64,000 nucleotides of DNA from Trichodelitschia bisporula (taxonomy: Eukaryota), in contig ML996692.1 in NCBI GenBank assembly GCA_010356995.1, forward strand, positions 1,003,933 to 1,067,932. The letters run 5' to 3'. The position numbers were made by a program, and so were the translations under genes. The notes below the pieces were generated by a model. It did not search any database, had not been told where the DNA came from, and saw only the letters and a program-made list of their open reading frames with translations. Below, one piece after another: positions 30,681-38,486 of the stretch; position 1 is the stretch's first letter; every line of letters begins with the position of its first letter.

Positions 30681-31655
30681 ATGTCCGCCGACGCCCTCCC
30701 TTCTCAAACCAAACACAAGTCAAAAGACAAGAAAGACCGCAAAGATCGCAAAGACGAGAAAGAGAAGTCGCGCAAGCGCGACAAAGCCACGGCCGATGAG
30801 CCGTCTAGCCCAAAGAAGCGGCGCCGCACCTCACAATCCACCAACGATGTCGTCGAACTCTCCTCCACCACGCGCCCCGCACCCACCCGCTCACCCCTCG
30901 TACGCCTCATTGCTTCAATGCAAGTCACCATTCCGCCAGTCTGCCAGGACACGCCCGTTGAGGCCGTGTGCGCCGCCCACCTGTCGCCGCTGCTGCTAGC
31001 GTTTTACCCACCGTTCCACGGGGTTGTGCTGGGGTATAATAAGGTGCGGCTTGTAGGTGGACCAGGGCTGGATGGTGAAGAGACTGAGGCGAGGACAGAG
31101 CCGGGTGCGGTGTGCGCGCGCTCGGTAAATGAGTATGCTGCTCCAGTGGTGTGGGTGCGGGCCGAATTCCTCGTTTTCCAGCCTAGGAGGGGCGCGAAGC
31201 TGGAGGGGAATGTGGTGTTCATGGGCGAGAGCCAAATCGGCCTCGTGCTGTGGAATCTGTTCAATGTGTCTATTTCGCGCACCCGGTTGCCGGCGGAGTG
31301 GACGTGGGTTGCGGATAAGGGCGGCGCGGCGCGGGAGCACGAAGATGAGCAGGATGAAGATGCGGAGGGGGTCAAGGAGACAAGAGAGGAGAGGAGGAAG
31401 CGCAAACGTCCTCAGGGTAAATACCTTGATGCGGAGGGGAATGCAGTTGAGGGGCTTGTTGAGTTCCGGATCCGCGATTTTGAGACTGGGGGGACGAATT
31501 CGGGCGATACCCACACGATGAGCATTGAGGGGACGATGTTGAGCGTGGAGGAGGAGAAGGCGTTGATGAAGGCGGAGATCGAAGGGAGATCTGGCTCGTC
31601 GCGAGCACGGCGTGGGGTTTCGCCCGGCAACCCGTCGTTAAGGCGAAGTGGTTGA
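30681..31655 (+). CDS. RPA43: RNA polymerase I stalk subunit A43-like
   Basis: Lys-rich N-terminus, then HLSPLLLAFYPPFHGVVLGY, WVRAEFLVFQP..G.KLEG, IGLVLWNLFNVSI..LPAEWTW, SIEGTM (Rpa43/Rpb7-like fold motifs). ATG at 30681. Confidence 0.82.
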   Translation: MSADALPSQTKHKSKDKKDRKDRKDEKEKSRKRDKATADEPSSPKKRRRTSQSTNDVVELSSTTRPAPTRSPLVRLIASMQVTIPPVCQDTPVEAVCAAHLSPLLLAFYPPFHGVVLGYNKVRLVGGPGLDGEETEARTEPGAVCARSVNEYAAPVVWVRAEFLVFQPRRGAKLEGNVVFMGESQIGLVLWNLFNVSISRTRLPAEWTWVADKGGAAREHEDEQDEDAEGVKETREERRKRKRPQGKYLDAEGNAVEGLVEFRIRDFETGGTNSGDTHTMSIEGTMLSVEEEKALMKAEIEGRSGSSRARRGVSPGNPSLRRSG

Positions 31656-32168
31656 GATAGGTGCTGCGGTGGTGGGCTATATTCGGGTGGTGAGGTGTAT
31701 GATACCAGGATGGCGGATTACGCTGCATGTTCATCTTCGAATTAATTGGGATGTGGTTTGGCATCTGACATTCCAACTTCACCGTGCACATGAACTGATT
31801 GTGGAGATGGCAATGCAATCGATTTGGTGGCAAAGATACTGTCAACCCCCAAACTAAACAAACAAGAAGTCCAATGATCCAAGCAGTCAAGATGCAAGAA
31901 GTCTCAGCATCACAATTCCAATACAAGAGATCCAACCCAAATTCAGCCAAGAAATCCAATCCAGAAGCCCAAATACAGAATCCAATCCAAGTAATACATG
32001 ACCAAGCGACCAAAACCATAACGAGCCCAAACCAACATCACATAACGCGAACACGAGCGTGTTCAATAACCCAACCAACATCGCGAACACGAGCGCGATC
32101 CATACCCAGAAACTCCACCACCCATCCAAAGGTCCATTCTAATTCCTCCACCAGCACCAGTAAAGACA

Positions 32169-32536
32169 GGGTCGACGGCGTCGTCGCCCTATAGGCATCC
32201 GCTGTGCCATGCGGAGTCTGAGATCTTCACAATTTCGAGGTTTCGAGACAGTCGGATCATGAAGTCCCAACTGCTCTTTGTTGAAGGAGACGGATGGCTT
32301 TGGGCGTTGCTACCATCCATCGTATCTGATTGATGATTCCAAGGGTCGACGAGGATGTCGCCCTATTGGCATCCGCTGCGTCATGCGGAGCCTGGGAGTT
32401 TGACGATTTGGGGTCTTTGAGACAGTCGGATGACGCGGTTCGAACTGCTCTTTGCTGAAGGAGGCCGCTTGCTTGGCGGTCGCGACCGTCGGATATATCC
32501 GACTGATGATTCGAGGTATTCCATGAGGATGTCACC
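32169..32536. repeat. Degenerate tandem duplication, 174-bp period, about 2.1 copies
   Basis: GGGTCGAC..GTCGCCCTAT.GGCATCCGCTG..ATGCGGAG..GAGACAGTCGGAT..AACTGCTCTTTG.TGAAGGAG occurs at 32169 and 32343; GAGGATGTC recurs at 32351 and 32525. Confidence 0.85.
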
Positions 32537-33862
32537 TTTTGTTTCATCCGCCCTTGCGAGCTGATGGAGGTGGCTGTGATGACGGGACAGCCGAGATGTG
32601 GTTCTCCGACACTGTTGTAGACTTGGCATCGACGATTTGAAGGTTGGCTTCAGCCTTGCGAACGCAGTTAGCACGTGACCTGCTGATGAAGGGCTGAGGT
32701 TGCCATACGGAATTACCTACCGGACACTGTCTTGTCCCCACCTCCCGGCGGGGTTACGCGTTCGTTTTGACGCGTTGTGACGGTTCAGAAAATTTTGCAC
32801 CCTTTGCTGCTCGGCAACATGTGCCTTGACCTTGTCGAGGGACATTGGCGTTAGGGAGCCTTTCCACGGATCGCCTTTGACGATATACTCGTCGAAGTAC
32901 CTGGTCCCCATGTTGAACGTCTCTAATGTCTTGACGTAGGTGCGTCGAGGAAGGGTTGCGCCCCCCTCCAGTTCTAGAACAGGCAAGCCATTATGGCCCG
33001 ACTCATTCCCATGGCGTATGAGGAGGTGCTGGCGCCTCACATCCTTATTTTTGTATTTTTCCGTAACCGTTTTTCCTCTACAAGACGACAGGATCGCAAA
33101 TGTTGCTTTCCCCTGCTCGTCCGGATTGGATAAAATGAGAACCGGGTGTTCATAAGCATTGTCACGTCCCAGTTCATTGTGGACATTTGACTCCGGCGCT
33201 ATTTGGTCCTTGCGGGGCAAGTACAATATCCGTCCAGCCCGGACGTTGTCCTCACAGAAGTCGGGCTTGGAACGGTCCGGACCGTTGTTTTTGGGCTTGA
33301 CGTCGGACTCAATCTTTGCGGGGTCTTGGCCGCTGTTCTCGTCCGTCTCGCTCGTGTCATGCTCGACGGGGTCCTGGCCGCTGTTCTCGGCCGTCTCGCC
33401 GGTGTCAATCTCATTAGACACCTGACCGCTGTTTTGGTCCGTCACGATGGTGTCAACTTTGGGACCGAGGGGCTGTTGGGTCGGGTTCATTGTTCCCCTC
33501 CAGGGATCCTTCATCTTCTTTGCTTTGTCGGGCGATATTTCGCGCCGTTTGCCCTCTGTGAAAATAGGAGCATTTGAAGCTCGGTGTTCAGCTGGCGGGC
33601 CAGATGAATCGAGGTATTTCGATGGAGCGTGGGCCTAGGTTGCTGTTGGCGAAGGTGACGAGAAGTTAGGTGATTGTGCGCTTACAGAATTTCTTCCCCG
33701 GGTAGAATCTGACTCTGCTGAAGGTTGTGTGTTCTCCGCGGTCTTGTGCGTGGGGGAAAGTAGTTCACACCCAAGCCGTCGTTTTTGGGGAGGGATGTAT
33801 AGTTGCTTAGGCACTGCGAAGTTGAGGGTTGTGAGGGAATGGGTTTGAGTCTGAGTTGCCAT
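32381..33862 (-). CDS. Orphan protein with acidic 16-aa repeats and a putative MazF/PemK-like domain. Exons 33862-33686, 33634-32721, 32654-32381 (ends at 32717 if intron 2 is retained)
   Basis: Intron 33685-33635 (GTAAGC..CCTAAC..TAG) joins MATQTQ..YIPPQKR..GRNS in frame to the 265-aa ORF. Intron 32720-32655 (GTAGGT..GCTAAC..AAG) joins to ORF 32674-32381. Core: RAGRILYLP..EHPVLILSN..ATFAILSS..TYVKT..LTPMSLDKVKAHV. Confidence 0.72.
33269..33454 (-). repeat. 48-bp (16-aa) coding tandem repeat, about 4 degenerate copies (DT.ET.ENSGQDP)
   Basis: DTIVTDQNSGQVSNEI / DTGETAENSGQDPVEH / DTSETDENSGQDPAKI / ESDVKPKNNGPDR; DNA core GCCGCTGTTCTCG recurs at 48-nt spacing. Confidence 0.85.
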
Positions 33863-34770
33863 CGTGTCACTAGAGAATGGGAGTGAAAACGGCAGTTGAG
33901 ATGATTATCGTCACTGAGGGTTGGATAAAGCTTGGGTGATATCGTCGCGTAGCGTTAGGTACGGCTTGGATATCACAGAATGAGGAAGGCTGGAGAGTGA
34001 CTGAAGGGGGATCAGGCACCTTTTGTGACTTCGAAGCTGCGGTCGACGTATGCGATCGCTACCCTGAACCAGTATTCTCAGGTGTGCGTCCGCTCTCCGT
34101 TGATCTGGCACGGTTGCCAGCGAGTCGTCAGGCCATACGCGTCCGTCGCCGACCTATAACATTGTGGAAGGGTGATATCACGCTACGTGGGATTGCGAGT
34201 CTAGTACAGAGACAGTGGGACCGTAAAATGGAAAGCCATTTTGGGCTAGAGTTCGAGTGAGCGTCAGTACGTATATAAGGGGCCCGGGAATCGCCTTAAC
34301 TTGGACTTCGAACCTTTCTCGCTCCCTCGATGAATCGTGCTGTGATGTCTTCCCAATGCTGTGTCAGCCGACGATGGATAGTGACGATGATGGAGATACG
34401 GGAGATTGGGGAGTCCGGAATCGACACACTGAAGGACCAGGCTGCTGAGGATACGGACGGGGAGTCGGGAGATCGTGAGCGCTTCACTCGCAGTTATTTG
34501 CCATGACGTAGCAGTACCCTTGGGTAGCTGACGTCTGCGATGCGAAGGATAGTTCCTGAAGCTAATACGACATGGTTAGGGGTGCCACGTGCCAGTCGAG
34601 CGTGGCATGGACTTTGGTTCTCAGGGTATCGGGGTTCCGGCTATCCAGCCTTACCATGTCCACCCCACCCTATGGCACTGTTGGTCGCAACCATTCGCAA
34701 ATATCGAAAGACAGAAATGGTGATAGAAAAAATATTGCATCACGGTCGCAAGGCGTGGTAGGTCCACTTT

Positions 34771-37700
34771 CTATTCGAGTAGCTTATTCAATCGGCGAAT
34801 TTCCGTCCAGCGGCTCTGGCTGCCCATCTCTAACAAGCTCATGCGCCGCATCTTTCCACTTGGATTCCCAACAACAACAGGCTTCCACTCTGGATCCTGC
34901 ATCTGCTCAGTCCATTCATTCGTATTGACGCGCGTTCCCAGAGAATGGTCGGGGAGTACACGAATACTGCGGAACCGCCATAGCGAGAGGGTCAAGAGTA
35001 CGGTTAGGATGGCGAGGATGATCGCAACCACCCCGGTGCTCAGTCGGGCACCCAAGTTGCGCGTCAAGGAACCTCCCCCTTCAGTGGCACAAGCGGCGAA
35101 GACGAATCCAAGAGATTGCATCATGAACACGCCAGCAGCGACGCGCGGAAAGGACGAATAATTAGTGCGCCGGCGTCGAACATCTTCAGCAAGACTTTGA
35201 AGCCGATGGCGCGAGTTGACCCCTGGTTGCAGGTCTGACGTGTCGAATGTCTCCATGACGAGTCCCATACATTCAGCGATGGCAAGGTTGGAAAGGAAGC
35301 CTACAGTCCCAGCAAAAAGAATCGGCGCCATGAAGTGCACCGACACTCCGGGACTGGTGACGGTGTATGCCGCGCCGGCGAGTGGTAGCAGGGTCATGAA
35401 GATGAGGCGGCGAGCTAAGTGCGAGGACCAAGAAATCTCACGATCGAACGTCATGCTGTCGGTACGCGGCCCCTGCTTACGATCTCGACTGAGAAGACTG
35501 GCCTTCGACAGTGGTACCGCTAGGAGAGCGCCAACGCTGATCGAAAAGACACCTAAGCCTACGAATTTGGGTTGGAGCCGGTAACTGCGAGAAAGGAGCG
35601 CACCCAAAAGCTAAAAGATCAGGAGAACCCCACATTTTTTTGGAAGACTGACGACTCACGATGATGACTAACACAACCATTGCATAGATCCATGCAACGT
35701 ACACAGCCAGAATGACGAAGCCCTGCTGGCGAAGCATTCGCTGGTTGAGCACTAACCCGGCCCAAACTTCTTGCAGCCAGTTTCGCGGCGACACCCCCGT
35801 CACATGAAGTTTAGCCTCCCCCCAGATCGTCGTCTCCAGAAGCTTCTCCTCGCTGTCGATATTCAGACGTACGGTGCGTCGGTGTGCCGAACGGCGAGTT
35901 TCCGGCATGATAACATTGATCACGATAACGCAGGAGATCACGATGATGGTAACGTAAAATCCCCAGGCAGGATTCAACGGCCCGATAATCGCCGCTCCGC
36001 AAAAAAATCCGACACCGATGGAGCCGATGAAGCACCATGTCCAGATTCCAAGCCATACGCCCATACCGCCACCGTCCCGCCGAATGTCATTGTATACCAC
36101 GATTTCTTGGTGCGGGCGGCTGCTCTGCAGAGAGGCGCCGAAGAGGTCTAAAAGGACAGTGAAGCAGTTGACGTTGGCGAATCCGAGCACAAGACCAGTG
36201 CAGAATCGGCAGATGACGACACTCAGGTGAAAGAACCGCAGTTTCGGCGTCCGGAACAAGCTCACGATGACAGCCTGCGGAAATTGTAACGGGAGTATAA
36301 TCGCTAGCGCACCAAGAATGTAAGGCTTTCGTCCGTGGAGCAGAGGCAACGGCCACGTAAGGAACGTAGTAATTGCGAGTCCGAAGTACAACCTGACGAA
36401 ATTAGCCTAGCGCAGAGTATGATGGGCAAAGTCTAGACGCACAGGACATTCCCCCGGATGACCTCGTGCCGTTGGTCTGCCAGCTGGAACTGAATCCGAG
36501 GCACCATTCCCGCCTGCAGAACAGTAAGCACCAGTAGCGGCAGCAGAGCAACGATGCTAATCTCACGTAGATTCCAACCACGAATCCAATGATTCCCGTA
36601 TTGATGCACGCAACGGTCGCGACAATCCGCTTTCTGGGCGTACTCCATTTCCTCGCAATCGGGTGGCGTCTCGAATGGTGAAGATGCGGTGAGTGATCTC
36701 TCGAATCGGATTTAAAGTGGGCAATCCGTCTCAAGCGGTGATGACCTTTCTCGGGATCCACATGCTCCTCATACTGCGGGCTCGAAAACGGCAGAGGGCG
36801 CCGCGGCGTTTTCGTGCGTTCAGACTCCCAGCTCAGAGGCACAGGCGGAGCAGGCTCCTCAGCGATTCCCTCAACCAAAGTATTGTGACGGCGGGGAGCC
36901 CACGGCTCGGGAGCAGGATCTGTGGGCTGGTGAGAGGGTTTGCGGTGGCGGAGGGTAGACCCATCGGAAAGTGGAGCGGCTTGTGAGGGGATGTCGGTCG
37001 CGTCTGGATACTTTGTGCTCGGTTTCCGTCCCATCCAATGCTCTTCTTGAGGCTGACCGAAATCTCTCACCACCGGCTCAGGATTTTGCGGCCTCGAAAG
37101 CTTACGTGCAGGCGTCGGTGGACGTATTGAGGTCCTGCGGTCAGGCGTCGGCGGATGTACCGAAACCCTGCGATCAGGCGCATACTCCTCAGACGACGCC
37201 GAAGAATATAACTCATCGCTGGACAGCGACGAGGAAGTAACATCCTGAAACCGTTCAGCGTCTTGAAACGGATGATTCCCGCTCTCTTCGCTCTCCACCC
37301 TCAACAACATCCTCGGCCTCGGCGCCAGTGGCTCAGGTTTAACTACCGAAGCCCTGCGCATGGCATCGCGGGCGAGATCCATATTATGCTCCGCGGCACG
37401 CGGGCCCAAACGCTCTGCCTCGTGAACGAGCTTGTTTGCTTCCTCGATCAGGTCTTCGAACCGGTTGATTGCATCTGTCATGGGGTGGGCGGTGCTGCCG
37501 CGACGGAAGGGGTCCGGGACTGGCGTGGCGAGGGTGTGTGGAGATACAGAGCGGATGGTGTCTGGTGGGGGCGTGAGGGAGTGCTTGGGATGATCGGGGG
37601 CGTCGCTCGTGCCTTCGAGAGTGGGGAACGAGCGGTGGGTTCGCAGGGGCTTCGGGTTTGGAGAAGTGCTCGTGGGCGTGAGCGTGGACGAAACGCTGAC

Positions 37701-38087
37701 AGTGGAGAGACTCGCGGCGCGAGAGTGGTGACGGGCTGGCGGGGTGTGGATTTGAGGTAAGTGACGGGGTGCTTCTGACGTGGTAACTAATCTTTCAGGG
37801 CCGGCAGCTCTTTCATAATGTCGAGGGACTGAAGGAGGACAGCGTTCTGGGGGAGGAAGGGTTGCTAGGTTGGCCGCATTGTCGGTCTTTTCATGGTACG
37901 GGGCGTCAGGAGGAGGGCGGCCTGGCGACTGTGGGTCTTGCGACGACTGTATGAAGGAGCCGGGAACCTTGGGAGATGCCGATGTAGGGGCGGCACCCAG
38001 CCTGGATACGGGCTTCCCGCTGAGCCATGGCAGACGGGACTTGGTAGGATATTGCGTAAATGTGCCTTTGACAGGCTCGGCGCTCAT
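34771..38087 (-). CDS. MFS transporter (DHA1/polyamine-transporter-like) with a roughly 480-aa disordered N-terminus. Introns 36566-36514, 36442-36393, 35659-35611
   Basis: PIARKWSTPRKRIVATVACINT..GIY|AGMVPRIQ..GNV|LLYFGLA..LPLLHGRKPY..DLFGASLQS..GGGMGVWLGIW..PETRRS..II|LLGALLSR..ETFDTSDLQPG..RWTEIRRLN; multiple TM segments. Confidence 0.88.
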
Positions 38088-38486
38088 TCTCGCCCTGTAC
38101 CGATGGGATGGTGGGCGAGGATGGGGGAGGGGAGATGATCTTAGGTGGGTTCGAGAGTTGCGTCAACAATAGGGTGGACAGGGAAGGCGTTTACGATTCA
38201 GCTGGATAGAGGCGAAAGAGAGGAACTGCGAATGGTGATAGGGCGTAGGAATGTGTGCTCAATCCGGGATTGGTATATGAAATGAGGGGTTGGGCCGAGA
38301 TGGATGGGGGAGGGAAGTGGATAGCGAGGCGGTTTGAGTGATAGCAAGGCGTGAAGTTGATAGAGTCTCGAAGTGTTGACCAGCAGGCTCAGGAGAGGAG
38401 AGAGCACTGGGCAGTTCCTCCCATGTTGAGACAACACTGGAGAGCAACTGACTTAAACCTACAGCGACGTTTATTAGGCCGAGCGA

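Follow-up and report, generated by a model that had tools for sequence, protein, structure and literature searches.

To our knowledge, toxins of the MazF/PemK class have been regarded as having arisen in prokaryotes, plasmids and phages, and as always being paired with an antitoxin. MazF carries an Arg at the start of its second strand and a Thr at the end of its third, and its target is RNA, whereas CcdB (PF01845; PDB 1VUB), which has the same barrel-plus-helix fold, targets a protein. The type III toxins CptN, ToxN and AbiQ combine a MazF core with extra elements. Here, we analyse a gene on the minus strand of a 64,000-nucleotide stretch of the genome of the fungus Trichodelitschia bisporula (contig ML996692.1, positions 1,003,933 to 1,067,932; this whole stretch is referred to as the window), the product of which very probably contains a fold-level homologue of MazF/PemK. 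A preliminary description of the window had proposed a MazF/PemK-like endoribonuclease fold for positions 32816-33241. On the minus strand, these translate into 142 residues free of stop codons, inside a 305-codon stop-to-stop open reading frame (ORF) at 32717..33634 (-), and each of the strings that had been quoted from the putative domain (RAGRILYLP, YEHPVLILSN, ATFAILSS, RRQHLLI, LPRRTYVKTLETFNM and SLTPMSLDKVKAHV) is present in the translation. Residues are numbered below according to a 165-amino-acid (aa) core, P0003, encoded by window positions 32768-33262 (-). An exhaustive protein search also returned the identical database protein, P0004, which is 493 aa long and labelled at its source ‘hypothetical protein EJ06DRAFT_369743 [Trichodelitschia bisporula]’.

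The core was modelled with AlphaFold2, using a 37-row family alignment and no templates, which gave a predicted local distance difference test score (pLDDT) of 95.2 and a predicted template modelling (TM) score (pTM) of 0.90; the single-sequence model (pLDDT 35.7) was unusable. The model consists of an SH3-like two-sheet barrel with strands at residues 11-15, 39-43, 52-59, 79-82 and 108-119, followed by a C-terminal helix (139-164). Relative to bacterial MazF, it has an insertion of approximately 30-45 residues (61-107), located after strand 3 and before the long strand 5. Comparison with the PDB using Foldseek yielded 21 matches with E ≤ 1e-3, all listed rows being either MazF toxins or CptN, a type III toxin. 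The best of these were MazF-mt3 (5hkc_A; E 1.9e-4, TM-score by target 0.68), Staphylococcus aureus MazF, Escherichia coli MazF (5cr2_B) and Bacillus subtilis YdcE. When the Foldseek list was passed to VIA-align, all 50 entries shown were toxins of this kind. The alignment with Bacillus cereus MazF (7bxy) had a Z-score of 11.1, with 113 of 116 residues aligned at a root mean square deviation (rmsd) of 3.0, and those with B. subtilis MazF (4me7_B), E. coli MazF (5cr2_A), Kid (1m1f_A) and CptN had Z-scores of 10.9, 10.5, 9.9 and 9.7, respectively. MazF and Kid chains as a group fell within Z 9.9-11.1 and rmsd 2.6-3.2, with 103-113 residues aligned; for MazF chains at Z 10-11, the aligned length was 98-115 residues.

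A structure search independent of Foldseek, covering 48,161 representatives, returned 12 chains with Z ≥ 8, all of which are MazF, Kid, CptN or CcdB, or are named merely as toxin, endoribonuclease or toxin-antitoxin complex. Broken down by system, the Z-scores in this search were 10.9 for MazF, 9.9 for Kid, 9.7 for CptN, 8.6 for CcdB, 6.9 for ToxN and 6.5 for AbiQ. Phage PemK-like proteins were the top matches in a viral structure library. The fold proposed in the preliminary description is thus recovered by the AlphaFold2 model and by both comparison methods, with MazF, Kid, CptN and CcdB at the top, and the barrel-plus-helix architecture of the CcdB/MazF superfamily spans the entire domain. 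We place the domain at 32771..33241 (-), corresponding to P0003 residues 8-164 and P0004 residues 191-347, on the basis of AlphaFold2, Foldseek and VIA-align; the hidden Markov model (HMM) of the family spans core residues 8-150.

The likeness to MazF/PemK/Kid (PF02452; 7BXY, 4MDX/4ME7, 5CR2 and 1M1F) extends over nearly the whole bacterial chain, and the order of elements is the same: a G-x-I strand, a long loop, an x-Pro-V-V-I-L-S strand, a strand ending in Thr-Ser, a long fifth strand and a C-terminal helix. Unlike MazF/PemK, the fungal family has no PF02452 match above threshold, has His in place of Arg and carries the insertion after strand 3; the fungal gene is eukaryotic, intron-containing and monocistronic, encodes long disordered arms and has no adjacent antitoxin, while tandem domains or a hydrophobic segment at the C-terminus occur in some of its relatives. 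The type III toxins (155-168 aa) are similar in size to the fungal domain and resemble it in adding elements to a MazF core (CptN 4rmo_A, 130 residues aligned; ToxN 4ato_A; AbiQ 4glk_A), with a higher rmsd (4.0-4.3). The alignment with CcdB covers 93 of 95 residues; its Z-score is below that of MazF, and the Arg-Pro and Thr-Ser motifs mirrored in the fungal family are missing from CcdB.

An exhaustive phmmer search of 1.84 billion representatives with the 165-aa core identified 37 proteins at E ≤ 1e-3 including the query itself, three of them at E ≤ 1e-10. Judged by sequence similarity, at least 37 clusters at 50% identity form an unnamed family of Pezizomycotina that takes in Dothideomycetes, Sordariomycetes and Lecanoromycetes. 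Given these 36 relatives, the gene is unannotated but no orphan, and the latter term, applied to it in the preliminary description, was too strong. Source names were examined for 30 of the 36 relatives (all except P0027, P0033, P0034, P0036, P0038 and P0039). Those with an organism name come from Tothia, Phyllosticta (two species), Glonium, Lophium, Baudoinia, Diplodia, Lophiostoma, Hypoxylon, Rosellinia, Xylaria, a Xylariaceae species, Diaporthe and Thelonectria, and from the lichen fungi Lambiella and Letrouitia, and all belong to Pezizomycotina with the exception of P0035, labelled Quercus suber; the remaining clusters examined name no organism. As all other named relatives are fungal, P0035 may represent a contig of fungal origin in a plant assembly. 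Where a descriptive name was present, it was only ‘hypothetical’ or ‘uncharacterized’.

No Pfam domain covers the core in any of the 37 family members, and searches of Pfam, NCBIfam and PDB sequences with the window protein yielded nothing relevant. A word-indexed homologue search found no homologues with a 265-aa piece and only three with the 37-row alignment, probably swamped by low-complexity words. Among language-model neighbours in the ESM Atlas, a PemK/MazF set made up nine of the 30 matches for the core; for the relative P0036, 22 of 30 matches belonged to a set in which 16% of the members of the cluster shown carry PemK_toxin. A cluster of DUF6590 (PF20233) was also among these neighbours (0.92 for the core and 0.91 for P0036, with two matches each). 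DUF6590 is an Ascomycota family of similar size, and it may be a sister fungal MazF-like family; this is a lead only, and DUF6590 is matched by none of the 37 members at E ≤ 10. Neither a fungal MazF-like family nor DUF6590 was described in the full-text literature searched; subscription journals, InterPro superfamily assignments and AlphaFold DB clusters lay outside this search, and the family may already be flagged there.

We then asked where the conserved residues of the family fall with respect to the active site of MazF. Aligned with hhalign against E. coli MazF alone, or against 29 close MazF homologues, the family gave probabilities of just 2.2% and 2.4%, respectively, and in both cases His-Pro nonetheless fell on Arg29-Pro30. 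A trimmed family alignment was next compared with a broader set of 18 PemK/MazF toxins (12 from plasmid loci, MazF and ChpB of E. coli, and four database proteins). This gave a score of 25.7 (P 6.4e-4, probability 27.8%), with His39-Pro40 opposite Arg-Pro and Ser59-Ser60 opposite the Thr-Ser of Pro-Ile-Thr-Ser. The reversed template scored 11.7, and 150 column shuffles had a mean of 10.8 (s.d. 1.8, maximum 17.8), so that none of the 150 reached 25.7; this control is a generous one, because shuffling destroys the strand patterns. A plain HMM of the 18 toxins matched the 37 fungal proteins weakly, mostly with the toxin Arg-Pro strand on the His-Pro strand. Taken together, His-Pro falls on Arg-Pro in four alignments, and Thr/Ser-Ser falls on the MazF Thr-Thr/Ser in two of these. 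In the model, strand 2 begins with His39 and strand 3 ends with Ser59. The register that had been proposed for His (33148-33146) was recovered by all the profile alignments made, and that proposed for Ser-Ser was likewise reproduced. The equivalence of His39 with the MazF Arg and of Ser59 with the MazF Thr is therefore well supported by profile alignment and strand register.

The His39-Pro40 codons lie at 33143..33148 (-), with His at 33146-33148, at the start of strand 2 and in the column of the catalytic Arg-Pro (Arg25 in Bacillus, Arg29 in E. coli). The Ser59-Ser60 codons, at 33083..33088 (-), lie at the end of strand 3, where the family consensus is Thr-Ser, in the column of the catalytic Thr (Thr48/Thr52). 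Both motifs are nearly invariant, which was the test that the preliminary description had set for itself: in the 37-row alignment, His39 is kept in 35 of 36 rows (with one Lys) and Pro40 also in 35 of 36, while position 59 is Thr in 33 of 37 and Ser in two, including the window protein, and position 60 holds Ser in 30 rows and Thr in six. By profile alignment, then, the catalytic Thr/Ser is retained, and the Arg column is as conserved in the fungal family as it is in MazF, with a different residue. Gly10 is kept in 31 of 32 rows. Further conserved polar residues are encoded at 32936..33058 (-): Lys69 (29 of 37, with Arg in four more), Arg76 (32 of 37), position 106 (Arg in the window protein; Lys in 29 and Arg in six), position 108 (Thr in the window protein; Ser in 22 and Thr in 12) and Tyr109 (35 of 37). 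The family consensus reads G-x-I-x-x-L-P ... H-P-V-V-I-L-S ... I-T-S-F-x-G ... E-K-Y ... R-x-x-Y-L-x-I ... H-D ... L-x-L ... K-x-S-Y-V ... I ... L ... L-x-x-x-S.

Residues other than the canonical ones occur at these columns in bacteria too. PMC7354611 describes Arg25 and Thr48 of MazF as key catalytic residues whose single mutants are severely impaired, with the Arg as predicted general acid/base and the Thr as stabiliser of the transition state. It further reports natural replacements that are still required for activity, namely Lys19 in Mycobacterium tuberculosis MazF4 (MazF-mt4) and Ser51 in MazF7 (MazF-mt7) (PMC7354611). In our set of 18 aligned bacterial toxins, two have His at the Arg column, one on Cupriavidus necator pHG1 (L009, His-Pro) and one on a Pantoea stewartii plasmid (L006, His-Tyr). 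Both L009 and L006 are annotated PemK/MazF toxins with adjacent antitoxin genes.

Within the family, no polar positions are more conserved than the two catalytic columns, and the exceptions at the Arg column (Lys and Arg) are residues that MazF enzymes use, which makes a MazF-type RNase the most economical explanation of the domain. Even so, we regard it as an evenly balanced question whether the gene encodes what these observations bring to mind: a protein of approximately 454 aa in which disordered, repeat-bearing arms surround a single diverged MazF/PemK homologue domain that acts as an RNase by the proposed route. For the narrower claim that the domain is an active RNase, we would rate the chances slightly below even. 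If the domain does cut RNA, it would be expected to pair as a MazF-like dimer and to bind single-stranded RNA in a groove made up of strands 2 and 3 together with the loop joining strands 1 and 2. Cleavage would be metal-free, through attack of the 2'-OH to leave a 2',3'-cyclic phosphate, with His39 taking over the general acid/base role of the MazF arginine and Thr/Ser59 stabilising the transition state. The RNA backbone may be held by Lys69, Arg76, Lys/Arg106 and Tyr109, all located within or next to the insertion that bacterial MazF lacks. As there is no linked antitoxin gene, the protein would have to be controlled through its expression, by the disordered arms or by an unlinked partner.

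Several observations weigh against an RNase of this kind. The Arg that defines MazF is replaced throughout, by His in 35 of 36 rows and Lys in one, with Arg found only in the first domain of P0015, and we know of no MazF with His at this position that has been assayed. The sequence link is faint: no member (0 of 37) reaches the PF02452 cut-off of 23.1 bits, the best whole-protein E-value being 0.15 for a single member; a search of PDB chains with the family profile (37-row alignment) gave no matches at E ≤ 10; and the hhalign probabilities to MazF/PemK are 2-28% over all comparisons. The residue equivalences rest on profile alignment and strand register, and the net charge of the domain is just mildly positive (median +3, range -6 to +11) and by itself uninformative. 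Finally, a common fold is no proof of function, since CcdB has this fold (Z 8.6) and is not an RNase.

This last point also counts in favour of the most serious rival, that the domain descends from the MazF/CcdB superfamily, has lost nuclease activity and now serves as a binding module, holding RNA without cutting it or engaging a protein partner as CcdB does gyrase, with His-Pro and Thr-Ser forming a ligand site. We consider this unlikely but by no means negligible, because the fold also serves CcdB as a protein poison and the insertion has conserved basic residues of its own (Lys69, Arg76 and Lys/Arg106) that could make up a new surface. The replacement of the catalytic Arg in 35 of 36 rows also speaks for it, and the long disordered arms, together with the hydrophobic segment seen in approximately 10 of the 37 relatives, would suit a scaffold or a tethered adaptor. 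On the other hand, MazF chains score above CcdB (10.9 versus 8.6), and the two most conserved polar motifs of the family fall exactly on the two catalytic columns of MazF. The Lys and Arg found as substitutions at the Arg column are, moreover, those that MazF enzymes tolerate, and His is a classic general acid/base of metal-independent RNases.

A second rival holds that the likeness to MazF is convergent and that the domain is a small SH3-like barrel, unrelated to MazF and followed by a C-terminal helix, of the sort found in Tudor, KOW or Mind-bomb repeats. Sequence identity to MazF chains is only 10-18%, no significant sequence or profile match was obtained with Pfam, the PDB profile search or hhalign, and SH3-like barrels recur widely, with Z-scores of 5-7 for many unrelated chains. 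However, the alignments with MazF take in nearly the whole chain including the helix (111-113 of approximately 115 residues), whereas the next fold class, the generic SH3, Tudor and KOW barrels, stops at Z ≤ 7.0 with just 53-77 residues aligned. The order and register of the motifs agree with MazF in four independent alignments, the hhalign score is far above those of the shuffles, and one domain of the family carries the canonical Arg-Pro-Val-Leu-Val and Pro-Ile-Thr-Thr strings, so that convergence appears very unlikely. That the frame is fast-evolving, non-functional or spurious and its predicted fold an artefact is more improbable still: the flanks are of low complexity and rich in repeats, no source examined has an annotation and the annotated 3' splice site disagrees with the RNA contigs, but spliced contigs are present in two runs, the core is strongly constrained across 36 relatives and the model gains its confidence from the alignment (pLDDT 95.2 with it, 35.7 without).

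With regard to classification, the family retains the fold and the catalytic Thr/Ser and departs from MazF/PemK in the PF02452 profile, the Arg and the adjacent antitoxin. We therefore read it as a new variant within the MazF/CcdB superfamily, outside PemK_toxin.

The architecture of the relatives offers some hints as to how such a domain might work. Two of the 37 contain tandem full domains: P0006 (residues 2-147 and 197-350) and P0015 (281-423 and 447-587). In P0015, the first domain has the strings Gly-Arg-Pro-Val-Leu-Val and Pro-Ile-Thr-Thr, which are the canonical bacterial ones, while the second has Lys-Pro and has lost Thr-Ser. The tandem arrangement would be expected if a pair of domains were the working unit. 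Approximately 10 of the 37 relatives (including P0009, P0012, P0019, P0022, P0026, P0029 and P0032) have a strongly hydrophobic segment of 19 residues C-terminal to the domain, a sequence feature that suggests membrane tethering; the window protein has no such segment. In P0006, the hydrophobic residues form part of a fused DUF1242 match (E 7.3e-18), possibly a fusion in the gene model. In place of the acidic repeat arm of the window protein, the relatives have Ser/Thr-rich arms.

Extending the RNase reading further, it is possible, though rather doubtful, that these proteins represent a eukaryotic branch of MazF in filamentous and lichen-forming ascomycetes, nuclear, intron-bearing and antitoxin-less, with a His-Thr/Ser active site. 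Such a branch might act as a regulated RNA-cutting effector, for example in stress-induced RNA decay, mycovirus defence or cell death and incompatibility, with its own acidic arm or an unlinked partner substituting for the antitoxin and with some members membrane-tethered or working as single-chain pseudo-dimers. If this were true, the MazF fold would have been kept in eukaryotes without a linked antitoxin, through an old transfer or by descent, and one would then have to ask what restrains a potentially toxic RNase. The family would also constitute a natural Arg-to-His experiment on the MazF mechanism, and would supply a hypothesis of function for ‘hypothetical’ proteins in many Dothideomycetes, Sordariomycetes and Lecanoromycetes.

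The gene is expressed as a spliced transcript. The RNA evidence consists of contigs from two public runs (X1 and X2) of one sample, recognised as RNA-derived only by their intron-less contigs. At the locus, these contigs skip 51 nt and 66 nt, both bounded by GT..AG on the minus strand, and otherwise show no differences from the window; since two introns of this type are skipped, the gene is both transcribed and spliced, the splicing having been supposed in the preliminary description. The coding part of exon 1 (33686..33862 (-)) starts with an ATG at 33860-33862 and comprises 59 codons for a low-complexity N-terminus, as indicated by contig coverage and the match to P0004. Intron 1 (33635..33685 (-); 51 nt, GTAAGC...CCTAG) is skipped by one contig in each of X1 and X2, appearing as CT..AC on the plus strand. 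Exon 2 (32721..33634 (-)) encodes a disordered, acidic, repeat-bearing N-terminal region and then the entire MazF-like domain, so that the conserved core is contained wholly within this exon. The RNA-supported intron 2 (32655..32720 (-); 66 nt, GTAGGT...CGCAAG) is likewise seen in one contig per run, and is followed by the coding part of exon 3 in the RNA-supported frame (32381..32654 (-)), which encodes a low-complexity C-terminus and ends with a stop codon at 32381-32383. A reconstruction from these coordinates is identical to P0004 over residues 1-364, and intron 1 agrees as well. In the P0004 model, intron 2 is 73 nt long (32648-32720), the acceptor in the contigs lying 7 nt upstream of the P0004 acceptor in both runs. 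This difference shifts the C-terminal frame, and the RNA-supported protein has 454 aa as against the 493 annotated.

Two tandem repeats overlap the gene. The first, a 48-bp unit in 2.6 copies at 33330..33456 (-) (Tandem Repeats Finder score 135, 75% matches), encodes acidic repeats of the ENSGQDP type upstream of the domain. An acidic arm beside a MazF fold recalls by analogy the acidic tail of MazE, and repeats 5' of a toxin recall type III systems; in the latter, ToxI consists of non-coding repeats, whereas the fungal repeat lies inside a coding exon and is imperfect. The second, a 174-bp unit in 2.0 copies at 32183..32533 (score 395, 76% matches), runs across the 3' end of the gene.

No second copy of the gene was found within the 64-kb window. 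The preliminary description had noted that no cognate antitoxin ORF lies adjacent, and this held up for genes of the MazE/PemI/AbrB type: none was found among 17 flanking stop-to-stop ORFs (31372-34928), which have no Pfam match at E ≤ 1. As for the two neighbours that it had named, RPA43 is indeed present downstream of the MazF-like gene (PF17875, E 7.9e-27), while the major facilitator superfamily (MFS) transporter was not substantiated, there being no Pfam MFS match for the long hydrophobic ORFs upstream at 34771-35610, 35477-36406 and 36402-38162 (-). These hydrophobic ORFs (34771-38162 (-)) gave two sub-threshold Pfam matches, one holin-like (E 0.0085) and one to DUF681 (E 0.065).

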